32,000 nucleotides of DNA. Origin: Mycolicibacterium smegmatis (GTDB lineage: Bacteria; Actinomycetota; Actinomycetes; Mycobacteriales; Mycobacteriaceae). Position numbers and translations under genes: made by a program. The notes beneath the pieces are model-generated. The model ran no database searches. It had not been told where the DNA came from and saw nothing but the letters and a program-made list of their open reading frames with translations. Positions 8,396 to 17,915 of this stretch are shown piece after piece. The stretch is from contig NZ_LN831039.1 of assembly GCF_001457595.1 (NCBI RefSeq), forward strand, positions 4,380,001-4,412,000, read 5' to 3'. How positions within the stretch are numbered: position 1 is the first letter of the stretch; each line of letters begins with the position of its first letter.

Positions 8396-9181
8396 CTAGG
8401 CGAATTCGGGTCTGCGCTTGCCCAGGAACGCATCGACACCCTCGCGGCCGTCGGCCGAATCGGCGCGGGCCGCGATGAACCGGCCCTCGGCCTCCATCTG
8501 CTCTTCGAGGCTGTTCTTCAACGACGACAGCAGCAGCGACTTGACCGCACCGTTGGATCCCGCGGATCCGGCGGCGACCTGTTCGGCGAGTTTCGTGGCC
8601 CGGTCGGCCAGGTCGGCGTCGGGCACCACCTCGGTGACCAGACCCCATTCGTAGGCCTCGGTCGCCGACAGCGTGCGGTTGGTGAGCATCAATTCCTGCG
8701 CGCGGCGCATGCCGACCAGGCGCGGCAGGTAGTACGACGCACTGCCGTCGGGGCTCAGGCCGACCTTGGTGTAGGCCATGGTGAACGACGCCGATTCCGC
8801 GGCCAGCACCAGGTCACCGGTCACCGCGATGCTGAACCCGGCGCCTGCCGCGGTGCCGTTGACCGCGGTGATCAGCACGGCGTCCATCCGCGCGAACGAC
8901 GATATGGCCCGGTGCAGATCGTCGGCGACACCTTTGATGAACGCGCCGCGCGAAGGCGCGCCGGAGAACGCCTTGAGATCGCCCCCGGCCGAGAAGAACC
9001 GGCCCGAACCCGTCAGCACCACGACCTTCGCGCCTGAGGTGTCTGCGCGGCGCGCGGCGTCGGCGAGTTCGCGAGTCATGGTGTCGTTCATGCCGTTCGC
9101 GGCGTCCGGGCGGTTCAGCGTGATGCGCGTGATGGGTCCGGACTGTTCGAACGCGATGGCTTCATAGGAGATCTCGGTCAC
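8396..9181 (-). CDS. Enoyl-CoA hydratase/isomerase (crotonase) family protein (261 aa)
   Basis: Track ORF 8396..9544 is over-extended. The GTG at 9181 gives VTEISYEAIAFEQSGPITRITLNRPDAANGM...VVVLTGSGRFFSAGGDLKAF...AVNGTAAGAGFSIA, the crotonase oxyanion-hole motifs. It starts 11 nt after the TetR stop. Confidence 0.85.
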   Translation of the reverse strand: MTEISYEAIAFEQSGPITRITLNRPDAANGMNDTMTRELADAARRADTSGAKVVVLTGSGRFFSAGGDLKAFSGAPSRGAFIKGVADDLHRAISSFARMDAVLITAVNGTAAGAGFSIAVTGDLVLAAESASFTMAYTKVGLSPDGSASYYLPRLVGMRRAQELMLTNRTLSATEAYEWGLVTEVVPDADLADRATKLAEQVAAGSAGSNGAVKSLLLSSLKNSLEEQMEAEGRFIAARADSADGREGVDAFLGKRRPEFA

Positions 9182-9192
9182 AGACCGGCACT

Positions 9193-9870
9193 CTAGCGGG
9201 CGGCCCGCCCGGGCGGTCGCACACCGAGCCGTGACGCGGTTGCGGCGGCGAGTTCGGCAAAGTCCCCGTCGAAGCCGAGCACGCGCAGCGCACCCTCTCC
9301 GATCACCCAGGGTTGTTCGGGAGGGACGTCGGCGTCGTCGGAGCGTGAGTTGATCACCGACTCCACGAGCCGGAACGGCAGATCGTCGGCCTCGGGCGGT
9401 CCGCCGCACTCGGCGATGACCGCAGCGGCCAGGCTGCGGTATGCGCTGCGCAGTTCGGCGCGGCGGCGGCGGAACGGCGCGAACCGGTCGGTGCGCAACT
9501 CGGGCAGCAGGTACAGCGCGCCCAGGTTCCAGCGGCCCGCGCACAGCTGTGAGGCGTCGTAGATCACCAGGGCATGCAGGCGCGGTGCCGCGGGACCCGA
9601 CTCCCCCAGCAGGCCGTGTGCGAGCTCAAGGGGCTCGTCGACGGTGCCCGCCAGCAGCGCGTCGAGGATGTCGTCCTTGGTGGCGAAGTGGTGGTACAGC
9701 GAGGCCTGCCGCACCCCCACCTCGTCGGCGATGCGGCGCGTGGAGGTGCTGCCGTACCCGTGGGTGGTGAACAGTTCGGCGGCCGCGTCGAGGATCTCCT
9801 CGCGCGCGGTCTGCCCCGGCCTCCGCGGCTGCTCCAGCCGCGGGCGGCCACGGCCGGAGGTGGTCGTCAT
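9193..9870 (-). CDS. TetR/AcrR-family transcriptional regulator (225 aa)
   Basis: The ATG at 9870 gives MTTTSGRGRPRLEQPRRPGQTAREEILDAAAELFTTHGYGSTSTRRIADEVGVRQASLYHHF, the TetR N-terminal HTH. It starts 7 nt after the FAAL stop. Confidence 0.85.
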   Translation of the reverse strand: MTTTSGRGRPRLEQPRRPGQTAREEILDAAAELFTTHGYGSTSTRRIADEVGVRQASLYHHFATKDDILDALLAGTVDEPLELAHGLLGESGPAAPRLHALVIYDASQLCAGRWNLGALYLLPELRTDRFAPFRRRRAELRSAYRSLAAAVIAECGGPPEADDLPFRLVESVINSRSDDADVPPEQPWVIGEGALRVLGFDGDFAELAAATASRLGVRPPGRAAR

Positions 9871-9877
9871 GCCCGGA

Positions 9878-11704
9878 TCAGGACGTCTGGAGTTCGGCCA
9901 GGTACTGCGCCTGGCAGGCACGGCGCGCCAGCTTGCCGCTGGTGGTACGTGGAATCGAGCCTGCCGCAACGAGTTTGATGTCGTGCACGGCAACCGCGTG
10001 GCGCTTCGAGATGGCCGCGCGGATGGCATCGACGATGGGTGCCGGGTCGGCCCGGCCCGCGCCGGGCGCGCGTTCGGCGACGATCACCAGACGTTCGCCG
10101 TGCTCGGACGGCACCGAGAACGCCGCGATGTAGCCGGCCCGCACCTGTGACGACGCCTCGGCGACCGTGGCCTCCAGGTCCTGCGGATAGTGGTTGCGGC
10201 CGTCGACGATCACCATGTCCTTGATGCGGCCGGTGATGTAGAGCTCGCCGCCCAGGTACATGCCGAGGTCGCCCGTGCGGAACCACGCGGCGCCGTCCGG
10301 CGCACCCGCGGCGTGGCTGCCCTGCGGCAGGCGCGACTGCAGCTTGTTGTGGAACGACACCTCGGTCTCGTGCGGGCGGCCCCAATAGCCCTTGCCGACG
10401 TTGTCGCCGTAGAGCCAGATCTCGCCGACGTGACCGTCGGGCAGTTCGGCGCCGGTGTCGCTGTTGGGGTCGACGATCACGGCCCACTGGCTGCGCGCGA
10501 TCTTGCCGCAGGACACCTGCGCGATGGCGCGCGGATCGTCCTCGGGCACCTCGACGGCGCGTCCCGCGCCGAGTTCCTCACGGTCGAGGTACACCGCGCT
10601 CGGATGCGCCGCGGGTCCGATGGTCGACACGAACAGCGTCGCCTCGGCCATGCCGTAGGACGGCTTGACCGCGGTCGGCGGCAGCCCGTACGGCGCGAAT
10701 GCCTCGTTGAACACGTTGATGGAGGCCATGCTGACGGGCTCGGACCCGTTGATCAGGCCCGCGACGTTGCTCAGGTCGAGTTCGTCTCCGGCCGGCGGCA
10801 GGCCGCGGTGCGCGGCGAGTTCGTAGGCGAAGTTGGGCGCCGCGGCGAACGTGGGCACGTCCGACGCGCCGAGCTCCTTGATCCAGCGGTACGGGCGCCG
10901 CACGAACGACACCGGCGACATCAGCGTGATGTGGCCGCCGCACAGCGCCGGGAACATGATCATGAGCAGGCCCATGTCGTGGAACAGGGGCAGCCAGCTG
11001 ACGCTGCGGATGTTCCAGTCGAGTCCGACCGAGATGATCATCTGCAGCACGTTGGTACAGACGCCGCGGTGGGTGATCTCGACGCCGGCCGGGGTGCGGG
11101 TGGATCCCGAGGTGTACTGCAGATAGGCGATGCCGTCGGTGTGCAGCTGCGCGGGGGTGAAGGTCGCGCCGACCGCGGCGGGGACCGCGTCGACGGCGAT
11201 CATGCGGGGGCGCCCGGCGTGGGGCAGCTTGCGGACGAACGCGCCGACGGCCTCGGCGGCGGCGGTCGTGGTGAGCACGACCGAGGGGGTCGCGTCGGCC
11301 AGTACCGCCTCGAGACGCTCGGCGTGGCCGGGCAGTTCGGGTGAGAAGAGCGGGACCGCGATGGCACCGGCCTGGATGGCGGCGAAGAAGGACACCACGT
11401 AGTCGACGCCCTGCGGGCACAGGATCGCGACGCGGTCGCCGAGCTTGGTCACCTGCTGCAGCCGCGCGCCGACCGCGCGCACGCGGGTGTCCAACTCCTT
11501 CCAGGTGAGCTCGACGACCCTCCCGTCGTGCTCGAAGTCGAGATACCGATAGGCCGGCGTATCGGCGAGCTCGGCGACGTTACGGTCGAAGTAAGACGTC
11601 AACGTCACCCCGTCTGGGATGGCGATGTTGCCGTCCGCATCGAGGTAATCCTCGATCTTCATGCGTACCGAAGCGTCACGCGCCCCCATGACTTCAGAAC
11701 CCAT
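9878..11704 (-). CDS. Fatty acyl-AMP ligase (FAAL), FadD32-like adenylating enzyme (608 aa)
   Basis: The sequence is colinear with remembered FadD32. Shared motifs are AYRYLDF, ILCPQGVDYVVSFFAA, IAYLQYTSGSTRTPAGVEITH (the FAAL-type A3 motif, not the FACL TSGTTGxPKG), WLPLFHDMGL, YGMAEATLFVS, ITGRIKDMVIVDGRNHYPQDLE and IPRTTSGKLARRAC. The start could also be the ATG at 11689. Confidence 0.9.
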   Translation of the reverse strand: MGSEVMGARDASVRMKIEDYLDADGNIAIPDGVTLTSYFDRNVAELADTPAYRYLDFEHDGRVVELTWKELDTRVRAVGARLQQVTKLGDRVAILCPQGVDYVVSFFAAIQAGAIAVPLFSPELPGHAERLEAVLADATPSVVLTTTAAAEAVGAFVRKLPHAGRPRMIAVDAVPAAVGATFTPAQLHTDGIAYLQYTSGSTRTPAGVEITHRGVCTNVLQMIISVGLDWNIRSVSWLPLFHDMGLLMIMFPALCGGHITLMSPVSFVRRPYRWIKELGASDVPTFAAAPNFAYELAAHRGLPPAGDELDLSNVAGLINGSEPVSMASINVFNEAFAPYGLPPTAVKPSYGMAEATLFVSTIGPAAHPSAVYLDREELGAGRAVEVPEDDPRAIAQVSCGKIARSQWAVIVDPNSDTGAELPDGHVGEIWLYGDNVGKGYWGRPHETEVSFHNKLQSRLPQGSHAAGAPDGAAWFRTGDLGMYLGGELYITGRIKDMVIVDGRNHYPQDLEATVAEASSQVRAGYIAAFSVPSEHGERLVIVAERAPGAGRADPAPIVDAIRAAISKRHAVAVHDIKLVAAGSIPRTTSGKLARRACQAQYLAELQTS

Positions 11705-11860: not shown

Positions 11861-13393
11861 GTGAAGATGGTTCCCATTAAGCCGAAAACTGCCAGGTACA
11901 CCGAGGTCGAGCGAAAGTTCGAGGTGACCGCGGCCACAGTCTCGCCCTCATTCGAGGGATTGTCGGCGATCGCGCGGATCGAGCGGATTCCGTCACAGGA
12001 ACTCGACGCTGTCTATTTCGACACATCCGCGCGCGCCCTCGCGGCGCGTCGCGTTACGCTGCGCCGCCGCACGGGCGGAACCGACGCCGGATGGCACCTG
12101 AAGCTGCCCGCCGGACCGGATGCGCGCACCGAGGTGCGAGCGCCCCTCGACAACGCGACCGACGGGGTCCCCGACGACCTCCGCGACATCGTCCTCGGGA
12201 TCGTGCGTGAGAGGCCCTTGGAGCCGGTCGCCCGCATCACCACGCACCGCACCGTCAGCGTGCTCTACGCGCACAACGGAGCCGTGCTGGCCGAGTTCTG
12301 CGACGACCATGTCACCGCGTCGGCCACGGGCCACGAGGACCACGCACAGCAGTGGCGCGAATGGGAGCTCGAGCTCGCACCCGGCGCCGACGCTGAACTG
12401 CTCGACCGCCTGACCAACCGGCTGCTCGACGCCGGGGCCCAGCCCGCCGGGCACGGCTCGAAACTCGCGCGGGCCCTCGCTTCGGCCCCGGGCGCCCCGA
12501 GCGACACACCGGAACCCGCCCAACCCACAGACGCGCTGCACCGCGCGATCGCCGAACACCTCGACGAACTGCTGGTGTGGGACCGCGCGGTGCGCGCCGA
12601 CGCCGAGGACTCGGTGCATCAGATGCGCGTGACGACGCGCAAGATCCGCAGCCTGCTCAAGGAGTCCGGGGACGCCTTCGGCGATGTCGGGCCGATCCTC
12701 GACGAGCTGCGCGAGCTGGGCACCGTGCTGGGCGTGGCCCGCGACGCCGAGGTGCTCGCGGAACGCTACGAGCACGCCCTGGCCGATTTGCCCGACGAAC
12801 TGGTGCGCGGGCCGGTGGCCGAGCGTCTCGTCGGCGGCGCGCGGCAACGCTACGAATCAGGTCTGCGCCGCATCCACCTCGCGATGCGCTCGCAACGTTA
12901 CTTCCGGTTGCTCGACGCGCTGGAGGGCCTGGTCGCATCGTCGACGGACACCGACACCGGCGATCCGGCGGCCACGGTCGCAGCGGCCTACAAGCGGGTG
13001 CGCAAGGCCGTCAAGAAGGCCCAGCACACCGACCACACGACCGACCCGGACGCCGGAACCGACGCCGGGACCGACGCCGTGGCGGCCCGCAACCACGCCC
13101 TGCACCGGATCCGCAAGCGCGCCAAGCAGCTTCGCTACACCGCGAGCGCGGCCGGCGAGGACCGCATCGCCGAGCGGGCCAAGGCCGTGCAGTCGCTGCT
13201 CGGTGACCACCAGGACGCCGTGGTCAGCATGGCGCACCTGCTCGACCAGGCCGACGCCGCGCACGCCGCGGGTGAGGACACGTTCACCTACGGCCTGCTG
13301 TACCAGCAGGAGGACGAACTGGCGTGGCAGGCCCGCACGCAACTGCAGAAGGTTCTCAAGAAGCTCAAGAGGGCGGTCCGCAAGGACCTGTGA
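11861..13393 (+). CDS. CYTH (triphosphate tunnel) + CHAD domain protein, Rv2226-like (510 aa)
   Basis: The N-terminal EVERKFEV (ExExK CYTH signature) is followed by helical CHAD repeats (HQMRVTTRKIRSLLK, ALHRIRKRAKQLRYT). The start is the GTG at 11861 or the ATG at 11867, which follows GAAGGTG. Confidence 0.85.
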   Translation: MKMVPIKPKTARYTEVERKFEVTAATVSPSFEGLSAIARIERIPSQELDAVYFDTSARALAARRVTLRRRTGGTDAGWHLKLPAGPDARTEVRAPLDNATDGVPDDLRDIVLGIVRERPLEPVARITTHRTVSVLYAHNGAVLAEFCDDHVTASATGHEDHAQQWREWELELAPGADAELLDRLTNRLLDAGAQPAGHGSKLARALASAPGAPSDTPEPAQPTDALHRAIAEHLDELLVWDRAVRADAEDSVHQMRVTTRKIRSLLKESGDAFGDVGPILDELRELGTVLGVARDAEVLAERYEHALADLPDELVRGPVAERLVGGARQRYESGLRRIHLAMRSQRYFRLLDALEGLVASSTDTDTGDPAATVAAAYKRVRKAVKKAQHTDHTTDPDAGTDAGTDAVAARNHALHRIRKRAKQLRYTASAAGEDRIAERAKAVQSLLGDHQDAVVSMAHLLDQADAAHAAGEDTFTYGLLYQQEDELAWQARTQLQKVLKKLKRAVRKDL

Positions 13394-13399
13394 GCGGTG

Positions 13400-13797
<398 letters not shown>

Positions 13798-13890: not shown

Positions 13891-15447
13891 TCAGCTCGTG
13901 CGGCGCAGCACCATGACGTTGTCGACCATCGGCATGGGTTGCCCGTCCGGGCCGGTCGCCTCGCGGTGCACGGCCTCGACGCGGACCCGTTCCCACTCGG
14001 AGGCAGGCAGATCGAGGCCGGCGAGCACTTCCTCGGCGCTCGGGAACGGGTGATCGTGCGGCACCCGTGTCGCGTTGGGCGGCATCTTGCCGTGGTCGAC
14101 GATCACCAAGTGCCCGCCGGGCCGGATCGCCCGCGCCGCGGTCGACAGGATCCGCGGCCGTTCCAGCCGCACCGTCGAGTGCAGGAATTGCGCTGACACC
14201 AGGTCGAACTCACCGTCCGGGAAGCTCTCCGACAGGTCGTGGCGCTCGAATGTGATGCGGTCGGCGACGCCGCGCCGCCCGGCTTCGGCGGCCGCGCGTG
14301 ACAGTGCGGTGTGGGAGATGTCGACGGCGGTCACCCGCCAGCCCCGTTCGGCCAGCCAGACGGCGTCCCCGCCTTCTCCGCAGCCGAGATCCAGTGCGTG
14401 CCCGGCGGGGAGATCGGAGGCGACCTTCTCCAGTTGCGGGTTGACCCGCCCGCTCCAGATCTGTTCGCGCTCACCGTAGTGACGTTCCCAGTACTCGGCC
14501 GGCGAGAGACCTTCGGTGGGCCACGGCGGGGTGGGCAGGCCGATGTCCTCGGCGAGCAGGTGCTGCACGATGGCGGCCGCGGTCTGGCTGCCCGCCGCGA
14601 CCGCCGTGGCCACCTGCGGCAGGTTGCCGGTGAGGTCGCCCGCGGCGAACAGGCCGGGCACCGTGGTGCGTCCGAACGTGTCGACGACGACGGCGTCGCC
14701 GGCCAGCGGTGTCGGCGCGCCGATCGCGCCGAGTTGCGCGGCCAGTGGTGAGCGCTGGTGCAGCGTGGTGGCGACCAGGGCGCCGCGACGCGACAGCCGC
14801 GTGCCGTCGGTGAACTCGACCGCAACCAGTTCACCGTCGTGGGCGACGAGCCGGGCGATCGACGCGTCGTTCACCGGAATTCCTGCCGCGCCGAGTTTTT
14901 CGGTCTGGGCGTCGTCGAGACCGTCGGGCCCGTTGGTGAGCACCACGATGTCGTCGGACCACGCGCGCAGCAGCAGCGCCGAGTGCACGGCGCGCTCGCC
15001 GCGGGCGATGACGGCCAACGGGGCGTCGCGCACCTCCCAGCCGTGGCAGAACGGGCAGTGGAAAACCGAACGGCCCCACAGTTCCCCGAGTCCCGGGATG
15101 TTCGGTGGCAGGTAGTCCATGCCGGCGGCCAGCAGCACGGTTCGGGCGTGCTCGTGGCCACCGTCGGCGAGGTCGAGCGCGAATCCGCGCCTACCCGCAA
15201 TGACCTCGCCGCGGCGCACCTGCACACTGGGGTACGCCGCGAGTTCGGCATGCCCGGCCGCGTAGAGGTCGGCAGGCGCCCGGCCGTCGCTTCCGAGCAG
15301 GCCGCCGATGCCGTGTGCGGGCAGGTTGCTCTGTTCACCGGCATCGACGAGCAGTACGCGCCTGCGTGCCCGGCCGAGCACGAGCGCCGCGCTCAGACCG
15401 GCCGCGCCGCCGCCGACGATGATGCTGTCCCATGGCTTGTTCTCCAT
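13891..15447 (-). CDS. Fusion protein: thioredoxin-reductase-like FAD oxidoreductase (N-terminal ~300 aa) + class I SAM-dependent methyltransferase (C-terminal ~200 aa)
   Basis: The ATG at 15447 gives MENKPWDSIIVGGGAAGLSAALVL, the FAD GxGxxG motif. A redox CxxC is present as HCPFCHGWE, and GLFAAGD is the FAD-binding C-terminal motif. The methyltransferase motif I is HALDLGCGEGGDAVWLAERGWRVTAVDIS, followed by FDLVSAQFLH. Confidence 0.8.
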   Translation of the reverse strand: MENKPWDSIIVGGGAAGLSAALVLGRARRRVLLVDAGEQSNLPAHGIGGLLGSDGRAPADLYAAGHAELAAYPSVQVRRGEVIAGRRGFALDLADGGHEHARTVLLAAGMDYLPPNIPGLGELWGRSVFHCPFCHGWEVRDAPLAVIARGERAVHSALLLRAWSDDIVVLTNGPDGLDDAQTEKLGAAGIPVNDASIARLVAHDGELVAVEFTDGTRLSRRGALVATTLHQRSPLAAQLGAIGAPTPLAGDAVVVDTFGRTTVPGLFAAGDLTGNLPQVATAVAAGSQTAAAIVQHLLAEDIGLPTPPWPTEGLSPAEYWERHYGEREQIWSGRVNPQLEKVASDLPAGHALDLGCGEGGDAVWLAERGWRVTAVDISHTALSRAAAEAGRRGVADRITFERHDLSESFPDGEFDLVSAQFLHSTVRLERPRILSTAARAIRPGGHLVIVDHGKMPPNATRVPHDHPFPSAEEVLAGLDLPASEWERVRVEAVHREATGPDGQPMPMVDNVMVLRRTS

Positions 15448-15483
15448 GACGCCCACCTTGCCGAGAGCATGACAAAATGCCAA

Positions 15484-15510
15484 GCTGTTTTGCCATGAAG
15501 GCAAAACAGC
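15484..15510. promoter_or_regulatory. Perfect 11-bp inverted repeat GCTGTTTTGCC-n5-GGCAAAACAGC straddling the XRE regulator ATG; candidate operator
   Basis: The arms lie at 15484-15494 and 15500-15510. The spacer ATGAA contains the ATG at 15495. A third related half-site, GACAAAATGCC, lies at 15471-15481. The whole divergent intergenic region is only 47 bp. Confidence 0.4.
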
Positions 15511-16091
15511 AGGTGGACGCGCCCGGTGCCGAGCACGACGTGGACGCCCTGGTCCGCCAGCGCCTGCGCGAACTGCGCACCGAGCGGGGTCTCACGCTGG
15601 AGGACGTCGCGTCCCGCGCGCAGATCGACGTGTCCACCCTGAGCCGCCTCGAATCGGGGAAGCGCCGCCTGGCGCTCGACCATCTGCCGCGGTTGGCCAC
15701 CGCGCTGTCGGTCACCACCGACGACCTGCTGCGGGCGCCCGAGGCCGAGGACCCCCGCGTGCGCGGCACCGCTACGACCCGCGACAACATCACATACTGG
15801 CCGCTCACGCGCCACGGCCCGGCAAACGGGCTGCACGCGTACAAGATCCGCATCAGCGAGCAGCGCAACACCCCGCCGGCCGAACTTCCCGTACACGAGG
15901 GCCGCGACTGGATGTACGTGCTGTCCGGGAAGCTACGGCTGATCCTCGGTGAACAGGATTTCACCGTCGGACCCGGTGAGGCCGTGGAGTTCTCGACGTG
16001 GACACCGCACTGGTTCGGCGTGGTCGACGGACCCGTCGAGGCCGTGACGATCTTCGGTCTGCACGGCGAGCAGGTGCACCTGCACTCGTGA
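15495..16091 (+). CDS. XRE-family HTH + C-terminal cupin domain transcriptional regulator
   Basis: The HTH_3-type sequence is LRELRTERGLTLEDVASRAQIDVSTLSRLESGKR. The C-terminal beta-rich part (HEGRDWMYVLSGKLRLILGEQDFTVGPGEAVEFSTWTPHWF) is cupin_2-like. Alternative starts are 15477 (longest) and the GTG at 15513. Confidence 0.8.
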   Translation: MKAKQQVDAPGAEHDVDALVRQRLRELRTERGLTLEDVASRAQIDVSTLSRLESGKRRLALDHLPRLATALSVTTDDLLRAPEAEDPRVRGTATTRDNITYWPLTRHGPANGLHAYKIRISEQRNTPPAELPVHEGRDWMYVLSGKLRLILGEQDFTVGPGEAVEFSTWTPHWFGVVDGPVEAVTIFGLHGEQVHLHS

Positions 16092-16092
16092 G

Positions 16093-17190
16093 CTACAGGT
16101 ACGCGGTCTGGTTCACCAACCGCACGGCCGAGCCACCGTCGGCGTAGAACTCGGCGATCGACAACGACGCCAGGTCCAGGTGCAGGCGGTAGAGAATCCC
16201 CTCGCCCGCGTCGAGCGCCAACCGCAGGATCGTCTTGATCGGCGTCACGTGCGAGACCACCAGCACCGTCGACGCGCCGTGCTCGGCGATGATGCGGTTG
16301 CGCGCGCGGCGCACGCGGTGCGCGACGGCGTCGAAGCTCTCGCCACCGGGCGGTTCGACGCTGGTGTCCCGCAGCCAGCGCCGGTGCACATCCGGATCCC
16401 GTTGCGCCGCTTCGGCGAACGTCAGCCCCTCCCAGGCACCGAAGTCGGTTTCGATCAGATCGTCGTCGACGGTGACGTCGAGACCCAGCGCCTTGGCGGC
16501 CGCGGCCGCGGTGTCATACGCACGCTGCAGAGGTGAGGTGACCACGGCCGAGATGCCGCCGCGCTCGCCCAGATACCGCGCAGCGGCGTCGGCCTGCCTG
16601 CGCCCCTCTTCGGTCAGCGCGGGGTTGCCCCGACCCGAGTAGCGCCGGTCGACCGACAACTCGGTCTGCCCGTGTCGCAGCAAAAACAGCCGTGTAGGCG
16701 CGCCGGTCACCCCGGACCAGCCCACCGAGTTCTTCGCGGGTGCAGGCGGGTCGTCAGACTCAGAAGCCTTGTCGGGCACGGCGATTCCCGCTGCGGCATC
16801 CATCGCCTCGTTGGCCAGCCGGTCGGCGTGGCTGTTGCGTTCCCGCGGAATCCACGTGTAGTCGACATGGTCGAAGCCCGCGGCCAGCGCGGCCGCGCGG
16901 CGCTGCAGTTCGATCAGGTCCGGATGCTTGACGCGCCACCGCCCGCACATCTGCTCGATGACCAGTTTGGAGTCCATCGACACCGCGACCTCGGTGGCGC
17001 CGGTCTCGGCGGCGGCCTCCAAACCCGCGATCAGACCCCGGTATTCGGCCACGTTGTTGGTGGCGCGGCCGATGGCCTCCTTGCGTTCGGCGAGCACCGT
17101 GGCGTGGTCGGCGTCGTACACCACCGCGCCGTAGCCGGCCGGTCCCGGGTTGCCGCGCGACCCGCCGTCGGCCTCGACGAGAACCTTCAC
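16093..17190 (-). CDS. rnhC: Bifunctional RNase HI / CobC-type histidine (acid) phosphatase, Rv2228c / M. smegmatis RnhC type (365 aa)
   Basis: The N-terminal RNase H motifs are VEADGGSRGNPGPAGYG...NNVAEYRGLI...RERNSHADRLAN. The C-terminal LFLLRHGQT is the RHG phosphoglycerate-mutase-like motif. The GTG at 17190 overlaps the upstream TGA (GTGA). Confidence 0.9.
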   Translation of the reverse strand: MKVLVEADGGSRGNPGPAGYGAVVYDADHATVLAERKEAIGRATNNVAEYRGLIAGLEAAAETGATEVAVSMDSKLVIEQMCGRWRVKHPDLIELQRRAAALAAGFDHVDYTWIPRERNSHADRLANEAMDAAAGIAVPDKASESDDPPAPAKNSVGWSGVTGAPTRLFLLRHGQTELSVDRRYSGRGNPALTEEGRRQADAAARYLGERGGISAVVTSPLQRAYDTAAAAAKALGLDVTVDDDLIETDFGAWEGLTFAEAAQRDPDVHRRWLRDTSVEPPGGESFDAVAHRVRRARNRIIAEHGASTVLVVSHVTPIKTILRLALDAGEGILYRLHLDLASLSIAEFYADGGSAVRLVNQTAYL

Positions 17191-17915
17191 TGCTTGACCC
17201 GCAACAGGATCGCGCCGCACTCGGGGCACCGCACCACGTCGTCGTCGGCCGCGGCGGTGATGCGCGCGATCTCACCGCGGTCGATCTCGATGCGGCACGC
17301 ACCGCAGCGCCTGCCCTGCAGCGGGCCTGCCCCGGCGCCGCCGCGGGCGCGTTGCTTCTCGTAGAGCTCGACGAGCTGATCGTCGATCGCGTTCACCAGC
17401 GCGTCACGTCGCGTGGCGCACTGGTGACGCGCCTGATCCAGCTCCACCAGCGCCGCGTCGCGGGCCTGCTGGGCCTCGGTCAGCTCCGTCTGCAGTTCGT
17501 CCACGCGGCGCAGTTCCTCGGACCGCTCGGCCATGAGCTCCTCGCGACGTTCCATCACCTCGAGCAGCTGCTCTTCCAGGCTCGCCTGGCGCCGCTGCAG
17601 GGTCTCCAGCTCGTGCTGGATCTCGGTGACCTGCTTGGCGCCCACCGAGCCGCCCTCGAGCAGCGCGCGGTCACGGTCCTCGCGCTGGCGCACCGAGTCG
17701 ATCTCGGACTCGTACTTGGCCACCTGCGCGTCCAGATCCTCCAGTGCGATCCCGAGCGCGGCCAGCCGGTCGTTGACCTCGCCGCGCTGCGCGGTGAGCT
17801 CGTCGAGACGCTTCTGTTCGGCCAAGTTCTTCCCGCGGTGCGCGATCCGCGCCAGCTCGGCATCGACCTCGCTCAGCGTCAGCAGCGAACGTTGTTGGCT
17901 TACTTCAGCTTTCAT
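17187..17915 (-). CDS. Coiled-coil protein with C-terminal C4 zinc ribbon, Rv2229c-like (242 aa)
   Basis: The ATG at 17915 gives [24 protein letters not shown], followed by a long heptad-rich helix. The zinc ribbon is CGACRIE...RCPECGAIL. It overlaps the Nif3 stop by 11 nt. Confidence 0.85.

Follow-up and report, generated by a model that had tools for sequence, protein, structure and literature searches.

The locus and its two genes

Within the 32,000-nucleotide stretch of Mycolicibacterium smegmatis DNA analysed here (the window), a two-gene block encodes MSMEG_4303, in which a dithiol-oxidase-like flavoprotein is joined to a class I SAM methyltransferase, and MSMEG_4304, a divergently transcribed XRE-HTH/cupin regulator. 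As an earlier note on this DNA had it, the block is flanked by rnpB and an RNase H/His_Phos_1 gene. The features are as follows.

13403-13790, minus strand: rnpB (RF00010, 298 bits)
13891-15447, minus strand: MSMEG_4303 fusion gene, 518 aa plus stop
13894-14502, minus strand: class I SAM methyltransferase domain, residues 316-518, of the small Slr1183/TPMT/TehB-like type
14365-14394, minus strand: SAM-binding motif I LDLGCGEGGD, residues 352-361
14503-14538, minus strand: interdomain linker GLPTPPWPTEGL, residues 304-315
14539-15447, minus strand: N-terminal FAD domain of the HlmI/DepH/GliT type with a pseudo-NADPH subdomain, residues 1-303
15046-15057, minus strand: redox-active CPFC (Cys131/Cys134), inside the HCPxCHGWE block
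15477-16091, plus strand: XRE-HTH/cupin regulator gene, MSMEG_4304 by gene order
15480-15504, no strand assigned: probable operator CCAA-N6-TTGC-N7-GCAA, overlapping the divergent promoter region and the ATG at 15495
about 15564-15728, plus strand: HTH of MSMEG_4304
about 15885-16055, plus strand: cupin of MSMEG_4304
16093-17229, minus strand: RNase H/His_Phos_1 fusion gene

The MSMEG_4303 reading frame extends over 13891-15504 on the minus strand, giving 537 aa from a TTG or 518 aa from the ATG at 15447. The 518-aa start is preferred because homologues align from residue 3-6 and because the conserved operator lies upstream of ATG 15447. The tag MSMEG_4303 was assigned by gene order together with the exact match of a published MSMEG_4301 primer at 11638-11662. 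For MSMEG_4304 the candidate starts are ATG 15477, ATG 15495 and GTG 15513; the intergenic gap is 47 bp, the distance reported in the earlier note, if the regulator starts at ATG 15495, or 29 bp with ATG 15477 as its start. The single 518-aa frame and all of the motifs quoted previously (GGGAAG, CPFCHGWE, VIARGERAVHSA, GLFAAGD and LDLGCGEGGD) were found as described. Moreover, the fusion is no sequencing artefact, since a survey of its spread recovered full-length homologues in about 90 clusters (at 90% identity) from Mycolicibacterium alone and thousands more across Actinomycetota.

The GC content of the block (about 0.70-0.74) is the same as that of the DNA around it. Its occurrence is patchy: of 7 Mycolicibacterium genomes sampled, 2 yielded no module, and a published table gives MSMEG_4303 no orthologue in M. 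tuberculosis (PMC5315357). That the block is an accessory insertion, as was proposed, cannot be shown; several rearranged versions within the genus share one RnhC-proximal site, so the module may be of long standing in Mycolicibacterium and have been lost from other groups.

The flavoprotein and methyltransferase domains of MSMEG_4303

Residues 7-286 match Pyr_redox_2 (Pfam, 2.7e-21), with the FAD motifs GGGAAG at residues 12-17 and GLFAAGD at residues 265-271, CPFCHGWE at residues 131-138, and VIARGERAVHSA at residues 146-157, the position of the degenerate NADPH motif. The HCPxCHGWE block is invariant across 56 fused homologues. When the domain was compared with PDB sequences, the dithiol oxidases HlmI (3e-50), DepH (1e-49) and GliT (1e-31) were its best relatives with solved structures, whereas true TrxRs gave 1e-15 or weaker. 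The thioredoxin-reductase-like identity offered earlier thus gives way to a closer kinship with oxidases, and what had been an analogy to gliotoxin and holomycin enzymes is now homology. In Foldseek comparisons, the AF2 model of MSMEG_4303 (pLDDT 91.2, pTM 0.81) matched DepH with a TMt of 0.94 and an rmsd of 1.6-1.8 A, and HlmI with a TMt of 0.87. Its closest structural neighbours also include 3fbs and 4fk1, which come from non-producer organisms and carry annotations naming no function, so the substrate range of the family may exceed natural-product dithiols.

The M. smegmatis genome has a genuine TrxB at another locus. In the alignment with this protein, its GGGDSAMEE is replaced in MSMEG_4303 by ARGERAVHS and its HRRDEFR by TNGPDGL, which bears out the degenerate NADPH motif described previously; neither the GGGDxAxE nor the HRR NADPH-binding motif was found in MSMEG_4303 when it was aligned with TrxB and DepH. 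CPFC stands where TrxR has CATC. By alignment, the 'region II' hairpin GAIGAPTPLAGDAVVVD is about 5 residues longer than that of TrxB, as it is in DepH; in dithiol oxidases the longer hairpin forms the substrate pocket. Identification as an NADPH thioredoxin reductase was rejected, given 78 bits against a cut-off of 343 for TIGR01292 and the absence of CAT/VC, GGGDxAxE and HRRxxxR. NADP-independent dithiol oxidases are distinguished by C-P/L-Y/F-C instead of CAT/VC and by loss of GGGDxAxE and the basic NADPH-holding residues, and the characterised enzymes use O2 independently of NADPH (PMC4894451). Because MSMEG_4303 has CPFC and has lost GGGDxAxE and HRR, its flavoprotein domain is, as judged from sequence and predicted fold, a member of the NADP-independent dithiol oxidase family HlmI/DepH/GliT. 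By analogy with that family, it would catalyse the O2-dependent conversion of dithiol to disulfide.

These features also bear on the order of reactions put forward in the earlier note, reduction before methylation. In one version of it, the CxxC flavoprotein would reduce a disulfide toxin, with a cellular thiol, thioredoxin or an unrecognised donor, and the fused methyltransferase would then cap the dithiol irreversibly. The chemistry of a CxxC allows thiols and disulfides to exchange in either direction, channelling of a reactive dithiol would be a natural use of a fusion, and the pTM of the model suggests a defined interdomain arrangement. However, the alignment gave no NADPH site in the flavoprotein domain, the characterised relatives are oxidases that work with O2 (PMC4894451, PMC11317636), and cellular thiols reduce disulfide toxins without any enzyme (PMC10500201). 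Furthermore, 12 regulator-linked loci, in Streptomyces and others, carry only the oxidase, an arrangement that fits an oxidase and not a reductase deprived of its methyltransferase. Since the NADPH site is absent, we regard reduction followed by methylation as unlikely, and as less likely than oxidation and methylation acting as alternatives.

In the AF2 model, the linker has neither helix nor strand and lies between a helix ending at residue 302 and another starting at 316. Downstream, residues 352-449 match Methyltransf_11/25 (Pfam, about 1e-18), and the features of class I SAM methyltransferases are present, namely motif I, an acidic residue after beta-2 (D376) and an adenine-binding D (D404). 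Across 56 homologues, LDLGCGEGGD, D376 and D404 vary little or not at all, and the SAM site, whose integrity the earlier note had made a point to check, is intact in sequence. A profile of the domain searched against the PDB matched Slr1183 best (3e-17), followed by thiol methyltransferase 1 (6e-13) and TehB (1e-9). Three specific identities were considered. TehB is unlikely, since the NCBIfam equivalogs scored 32-42 bits against cut-offs of 218-303. GtmA/TmtA was set aside because the 60 top-ranking PDB profile matches, which extend to an E of 2.4e-7, include no GtmA entry. MddM1 was rejected because the 210-aa proteins of Mycolicibacterium, whose genes were located in 7 of 201 same-genus genomes by an N-terminus pattern taken from published primers, are only 22-27% identical to the domain (E 1e-4 to 0.05). 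Given similarity that is generic for class I and no closeness to GtmA, methylation of a thiol is suggested by context.

These comparisons also speak to a role in detoxifying inorganic or small volatile S, Se and Te compounds (selenite, tellurite, H2S, methanethiol), with a TehB/TPMT/Mdd-type methyltransferase and the flavoprotein as redox step. Pfam TPMT reached 41.8 bits (cut-off 26), although over only profile positions 4-93 of 218, and Pfam TehB reached 28.7 bits (cut-off 20.4); full-length alignments were obtained to the structures of thiol methyltransferase 1, methyl chloride transferase and TehB; and Actinomycetota methylate H2S and MeSH (PMC12904073). On the other hand, even the best TehB equivalog score falls far below its cut-offs, so the link to TehB and chalcogens drawn earlier is weak, MddM1 belongs to another subfamily, and a flavoprotein that lacks an NAD(P)H site would be ill suited to reducing oxyanions. 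We therefore consider chalcogen detoxification improbable.

The regulator, its operator and the spread of the module

MSMEG_4304 comprises HTH_3 at residues 30-84 (2e-13) and Cupin_2 at residues 137-193 (1e-11) in Pfam, and its orthologues are conserved only from residue 29 on. The cupin residues H140, E168, E171, H178 and H201 are kept in at least 90% of 70 orthologues, among which the conserved part is devoid of Cys. PuuR orthology was rejected (NF007408, 20.7 bits against a cut-off of 211), and no close paralogues were found in the M. smegmatis genome.

The core of the probable operator is the palindrome TTGCC-ATGAA-GGCAA at 15490-15504, and TTGC-N7-GCAA occurs in the window only once, within the 15480-15504 element. 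Of 27 Mycobacteriales loci, 26 had the pattern GCAA-N6-TTGC-N7-GCAA a short way upstream of the oxidase/methyltransferase gene. When 80 named loci were examined, 50 matches to the element were obtained, 46 of them no more than 260 bp upstream of such a gene; this probable operator, previously undescribed, has almost no background in the surveyed loci. Across the M. smegmatis genome there are 43 TTGC-N7-GCAA sites, not far from the 65 or so estimated from base composition. One extra site with the full pattern was found at genome position 3,932,960, upstream of an unrelated gene, and the genome-wide operator search identified no second regulon member in M. smegmatis.

The architecture is not rare: fused oxidase-methyltransferase (OX-MT) genes are spread over many genera, and NCBI annotation already has a name for the architecture ("bifunctional ..."). 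The domains occur fused in both orders, split in adjacent genes (G077, G094 and G142) or singly; in the reverse-order MT-OX fusion P0126 both domains are 44-45% identical to those of MSMEG_4303, and P0171 has the form OX-MT-MT. The XRE-cupin partner accompanied the enzyme in 22 of about 27 Mycobacteriales loci and in 30 of 39 fusion loci outside that order, in agreement with the functional link to the regulator proposed earlier. The regulator is found with every one of these arrangements, split and reverse-order ones included. An XRE-cupin orthologue and TTGC-N7-GCAA go with fused, oxidase-only and methyltransferase-only genes alike, and stand-alone oxidase paralogues that lack the regulator also lack the element.

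The neighbourhood of the module makes it very improbable that MSMEG_4303 is a tailoring enzyme of a cryptic pathway to a disulfide- or thiomethyl-containing natural product. HlmI, DepH and GliT are indeed encoded inside biosynthetic clusters (PMC11317636). However, no conserved third gene (transporter, reductase or other) was found near the module across 52 loci (20 + 32) from many genera, the neighbours differ between genera, and the module in the window lies between rnpB and rnhC. An MFS_1 transporter gene directly 3' of the module was seen in only two genera.

The range of the fusion, which takes in Actinomycetota and one Ktedonobacteria member, probably overlaps the taxonomic range of ergothioneine producers. 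This overlap would suit the housekeeping of endogenous low-molecular-weight thiols (ergothioneine, mycothiol-related) rather than toxin defence. Moreover, MSMEG_4303 is made in M. smegmatis, where it was detected as a 2D-DIGE spot without added toxin and fell 5.4-fold in an ergothioneine-deficient egtA mutant (PMC5315357). However, the protein was still lower (-3.85) in the partly complemented strain (PMC5315357), and the patchy occurrence described above, both within the genus and with respect to M. tuberculosis, is atypical of core thiol metabolism. Thiol housekeeping is accordingly judged a slim prospect. The decrease in the mutant is the sole expression datum for MSMEG_4303 and gives no pointer to xenobiotics. 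Literature searches by description and by locus tag returned no functional study of the oxidase-methyltransferase fusion, nothing on MSMEG_4304, and for MSMEG_4303 only the proteomics table entry.

A proposed defence module and its relation to known systems

Taken together, these data make it about an even chance (roughly 0.5) that the MSMEG_4303 module is an inducible defence in which reduced disulfide toxins are either oxidised again or S-methylated. In the proposed mechanism, the XRE-cupin protein would bind GCAA-N6-TTGC-N7-GCAA between the divergent genes and control both its own gene and that of the enzyme, as the conservation of the element suggests. The FAD domain, having no NADPH site, would oxidise a small-molecule dithiol to the disulfide and pass the two electrons to O2; this step would parallel HlmI, DepH, GliT and DnoP, and sequence and fold show the domain to belong to their family. 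The C-terminal domain would use SAM to methylate a nucleophile, most probably the thiol or thiols of the same reduced substrate, forming an irreversible cap. For this step the SAM site is intact, and a thiol substrate is suggested by the fusion, by gene-neighbourhood logic, and by the GliT/GtmA and HlmI/S-methylation precedents. The module may thus guard soil actinomycetes against disulfide 'pro-drug' toxins (epidithiodioxopiperazines, dithiolopyrrolones, FK228-type depsipeptides), which turn into zinc-chelating dithiols on reduction by cellular thiols. The reduced dithiol more probably meets one of two fates, being either oxidised or methylated; since both reactions compete for it, the benefit of the fusion is not obvious.

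More tentatively, and with less than even odds, the XRE-cupin protein and GCAA-N6-TTGC-N7-GCAA might define an actinobacterial regulon against zinc-chelating dithiol antibiotics that deploys a dithiol oxidase, a thiol S-methyltransferase or the two in one protein. The methyltransferase family might then account for the bis-thiomethylation of reduced holomycin-type compounds, and the His/Glu-lined cupin might sense the dithiol or the loss of its own metal. Disulfide 'pro-drug' products (gliotoxin, holomycin/thiolutin, romidepsin-type) are being revisited as zinc-chelating antimicrobials, and the protection mechanisms known so far are the dithiol oxidases of producers, DnoP of Pseudomonas and a fungal thiomethyltransferase. 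If the proposal is true, soil actinomycetes would owe intrinsic resistance to a widespread, regulated module in which the two chemistries are joined. When hlmI is absent, S. clavuligerus produces S-methylated holomycin through an enzyme that 'remains to be discovered' (PMC10500201), and the module would be a direct candidate for this missing bacterial S-methylation of reduced holomycin. The module is carried by M. smegmatis, a widely used laboratory model, and the conserved operator offers a handle on the XRE-cupin regulator and its wider regulon.

Among known systems, HlmI (S. clavuligerus, 4NTD) and DepH (C. violaceum, 4JN9/4NTE) share with MSMEG_4303 the TrxR fold (38-39% identity, E about 1e-50) and the C-P-F/Y-C-H-G redox block, and both have likewise lost GGGDxAxE and the basic NADPH-phosphate residues. 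They are encoded in biosynthetic clusters, whereas MSMEG_4303 lies outside one and has a fused methyltransferase and an XRE-cupin regulator. On the methyltransferase side, TehB/TPMT/HOL-type enzymes and Slr1183 have in common with the MSMEG_4303 domain a class I fold of about 200 aa and an N-terminal W..Y....WSG..N lid, but the domain scores far under the NCBIfam equivalog cut-offs, and homology gives no basis for assigning it a substrate. MddM1 of Mycolicibacterium poriferae, an H2S/methanethiol S-methyltransferase induced by sulfide and oxidative stress (PMC12904073), is similarly a cytoplasmic SAM methyltransferase (about 210 aa) common in Actinomycetota, although of another subfamily.

Compared by description, the closest functional analogy is DnoP (PA4170) of P. 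aeruginosa, a dithiol oxidase homologue encoded outside any cluster in a non-producer, which protects against gliotoxin and holomycin (PMC11317636); like the module proposed here, it is inducible, lies outside a cluster and serves xenobiotic defence. DnoP is a single-domain protein induced via zinc starvation, with no methyltransferase or XRE-cupin partner reported, whereas MSMEG_4303 has both. In A. fumigatus, GliT and GtmA/TmtA apply dithiol oxidation and SAM-dependent bis-thiomethylation to one toxin, the same two chemistries as are proposed for MSMEG_4303, and strains lacking GliT and GtmA/TmtA are hypersensitised (PMC10500201). The fungal GliT (28% identical) and GtmA are encoded by two unlinked genes, whereas in M. 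smegmatis the two domains reside in one fused gene.

Gene layout and the flavoprotein domain

The module consists of two divergent genes and is adjoined on either side by rnpB and an RNase H/histidine-phosphatase gene, as follows:

13403-13790: rnpB
13891..15504, minus strand: oxidase-methyltransferase fusion ORF (537 open codons from TTG; 518 aa from ATG 15447)
15480-15504: putative operator, CCAAGCTGTTTTGCCATGAAGGCAA, which includes an inverted repeat
15477/15495..16091, plus strand: regulator gene MSMEG_4304 (Pfam HTH_3 and Cupin_2 domains)
16093-17229: RNase H/histidine-phosphatase fusion gene

The earlier note described a single fused ORF of 518 aa; ATG 15447 yields exactly that protein, and every sequence motif quoted there was found in its place. 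The fusion was designated MSMEG_4303 and the regulator MSMEG_4304 on the basis of gene order and of a published MSMEG_4301 cloning primer (the forward primer; PMC9431677) that matches 11638-11662 exactly and so assigns the window to M. smegmatis. MSMEG_4301, a FadD32-like FAAL gene (8396-11704; gene end at 11662, minus strand), was shown experimentally to be needed for alpha'-mycolic acid synthesis (PMC9431677). The CYTH/CHAD gene MSMEG_4302 (11861-13393) and rnpB converge, with ~10 nt between the stop codon of the former and the 3' end of the latter. For the regulator, three in-frame start candidates were noted (ATG 15477, ATG 15495 within the operator spacer, and GTG 15513); its orthologues are conserved only from residue 29 onward, and the true start is possibly leaderless.

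In the fusion, Pfam assigned Pyr_redox_2 to residues 7-286 and generic models of class I methyltransferases to 352-449, together with weaker, yet above-threshold, matches to TPMT and TehB. When solved structures were searched by sequence, the top relatives of the flavoprotein domain (residues 1-303) were the dithiol oxidases HlmI (3e-50), DepH (1e-49), and GliT (1e-31), along with the structural-genomics proteins 3fbs and 4fk1, whereas genuine thioredoxin reductases scored 1e-15 or weaker. The domain was also aligned with four proteins: HlmI, DepH, a paralogue from the same genome, and the M. smegmatis TrxB. Its FAD motifs are intact and its redox motif is CPFC (CPYC in HlmI and DepH, CATC in TrxB), but GGGDSAMEE and HRRDEFR of TrxB are replaced by ARGERAVHS and TNGPDGL, respectively, and the "region II" hairpin is longer. 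By these features, the DepH structure paper distinguishes dithiol oxidases that use O2 and are independent of NADP from thioredoxin reductases (PMC4894451). An AlphaFold2 model built with 56 fused homologues (pLDDT 91.2, pTM 0.81) best matched 3fbs, DepH (TMt 0.94, rmsd 1.6-1.8 Å), 4fk1, HlmI (0.87), AclR, and GliT, and the TrxB model TIGR01292 gave only 78 bits, its cut-off being 343. The degenerate NADPH site proposed earlier was thus borne out; it is the defining mark of enzymes already known to act as oxidases. Given the lost NADPH site, we regard the reductive direction favored in the earlier note as unlikely.

A stand-alone paralogue of this domain (G000:C1:789044-789967; 54% identical, CPFCHAWE) is encoded in the same genome, with no methyltransferase gene, XRE-cupin gene, or TTGC-N7-GCAA element nearby. 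Relatives carry similar unlinked paralogues (L015, L027, and L028).

The methyltransferase domain and its coupling to the oxidase

Motif I (LDLGCGEGGD) of the methyltransferase domain (residues 316-518) shows little or no variation across 56 homologues, and the same holds for D376 and D404; the domain therefore very likely still binds SAM. It also has an N-terminal lid, W..Y....WSG..N. The best PDB profile matches were Slr1183 (3e-17), MitM, a Methanosarcina methyltransferase, and thiol methyltransferase 1 (6e-13), followed by Rv0560c, methyl chloride transferase, and TehB (1e-9). No PDB relative is close enough for substrate transfer. Methylation of chalcogens or small thiols would suit the thiol methyltransferase and TehB matches; we consider this role quite unlikely. 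Two specific identities were rejected. A pattern built on the published primers retrieved MddM1, an S-methyltransferase for H2S and methanethiol newly described from Mycolicibacterium (PMC12904073), from genomes of the same genus; its identity to the domain is only 22-27%. GtmA, the fungal gliotoxin thiomethyltransferase, was absent from the best 60 solved relatives.

The fusion is named [quoted passage not shown] at NCBI. Its homologues in Mycolicibacterium form ~90 clusters at 90% identity, and it is abundant in Micromonospora, Nonomuraea, Streptosporangium, Streptomyces, Nocardioides, Microbacterium, Leucobacter, Demequina, Amycolatopsis, Actinoplanes, Pseudonocardia, and Saccharopolyspora; outside Actinomycetota it occurs in Thermosporothrix (Chloroflexota). 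Among 1.84 billion representative proteins searched, dozens of clusters at 50% identity share this architecture. Being common and already annotated, it is thus no new kind of protein; our literature search found no functional study of it. The domain order also varies: P0126 is a reverse-order fusion whose domains are both 44-45% identical to their M. smegmatis counterparts, and P0171 carries a second methyltransferase domain (oxidase-methyltransferase-methyltransferase). Within the GTDB family of M. smegmatis the domains are fused in many genera, and are encoded by separate neighboring genes in three genomes (G077, G094, and G142). At the syntenic site near the RNase H gene, four forms occur within the genus:

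Fusion: M. smegmatis and G055
Split genes: G077 and G094
Locus L011 (G031): rnpB, methyltransferase, regulator, oxidase, rnhC, in that order
Locus L075 (G138): methyltransferase and regulator only, with the oxidase on another contig

That the domains were fused independently in both orders, and also stand as split neighbors, is a classic kind of evidence for two activities that work together.

A probable shared regulator and a conserved element

A tblastn search placed an XRE-cupin orthologue (40-79% identical) divergently beside the oxidase-methyltransferase unit in 22 of ~27 Mycobacteriales loci, but beside none of the stand-alone oxidase paralogues. When the intergenic regions were aligned, GCAA-N6-TTGC-N7-GCAA emerged as a conserved element. 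Its core, TTGC-N7-GCAA, is present exactly once in 26 of 27 Mycobacteriales loci, in every case a short distance upstream of the enzyme gene, and zero times in the paralogue loci. The core occurs singly in the window (at 15490) and 20 times in twenty 16-kb loci holding one module each; in 80 named public-genome loci (694 kb), 46 of 50 occurrences lay ≤260 bp upstream of an oxidase or methyltransferase gene.

The element is retained at fusion loci lacking an adjacent regulator; in four of five such genomes the orthologue is encoded elsewhere, often divergent from a methyltransferase-only gene with the same element. Moreover, 12 oxidase-only loci (Streptomyces and other genera) carry the regulator, 11 of them with the element. 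Since regulator and element accompany each form, the same sensor appears to drive oxidase, methyltransferase, or both, which argues that the two enzymes respond to one common signal. This operator and its modular regulon appear to be previously undescribed.

Across 70 regulator orthologues, the cupin residues H140, E168, E171, H178, and H201 are kept and no cysteine is conserved, a pattern more in keeping with a pocket for a metal or a ligand than with a thiol switch. Paralogous XRE-cupin regulators also lie divergent from methyltransferase-only genes at L058, L061, and L062 (G053 and G122), whose products are 30-40% identical to the methyltransferase domain; the core element is present at L058 and L061. 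The full pattern recurs in the M. smegmatis genome at G000:C1:3932960-3932984 (GCAACATGCGTTGCACTATATGCAA), where it resembles other-genus operators. This site, upstream of an unrelated gene and beside an apparent transcriptional-regulator gene, probably arose by chance or serves another regulator.

Proposed function and precedents

We propose, with a probability of about one half, that the module is an inducible defense against disulfide toxins. Cellular thiols would turn such toxins into zinc-chelating dithiols, which the flavoprotein would re-oxidize using O2 and the methyltransferase would cap using SAM. An MFS transporter gene directly follows the fusion in two genera; no conserved third gene was found in the module neighborhoods. 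MSMEG_4303 protein is made in M. smegmatis, and its level was lower in an ergothioneine-deficient mutant, although complementation was only partial (PMC5315357). We view a role with an endogenous thiol as improbable, and the tailoring of a biosynthetic product as highly improbable.

Defense against disulfide toxins has several precedents. DnoP of P. aeruginosa, a dithiol oxidase encoded outside any cluster, protects against gliotoxin and holomycin (PMC11317636). An hlmI mutant makes S-methylated holomycins, the responsible methyltransferase being undiscovered according to a 2023 review, and A. fumigatus pairs GliT with GtmA (PMC10500201).
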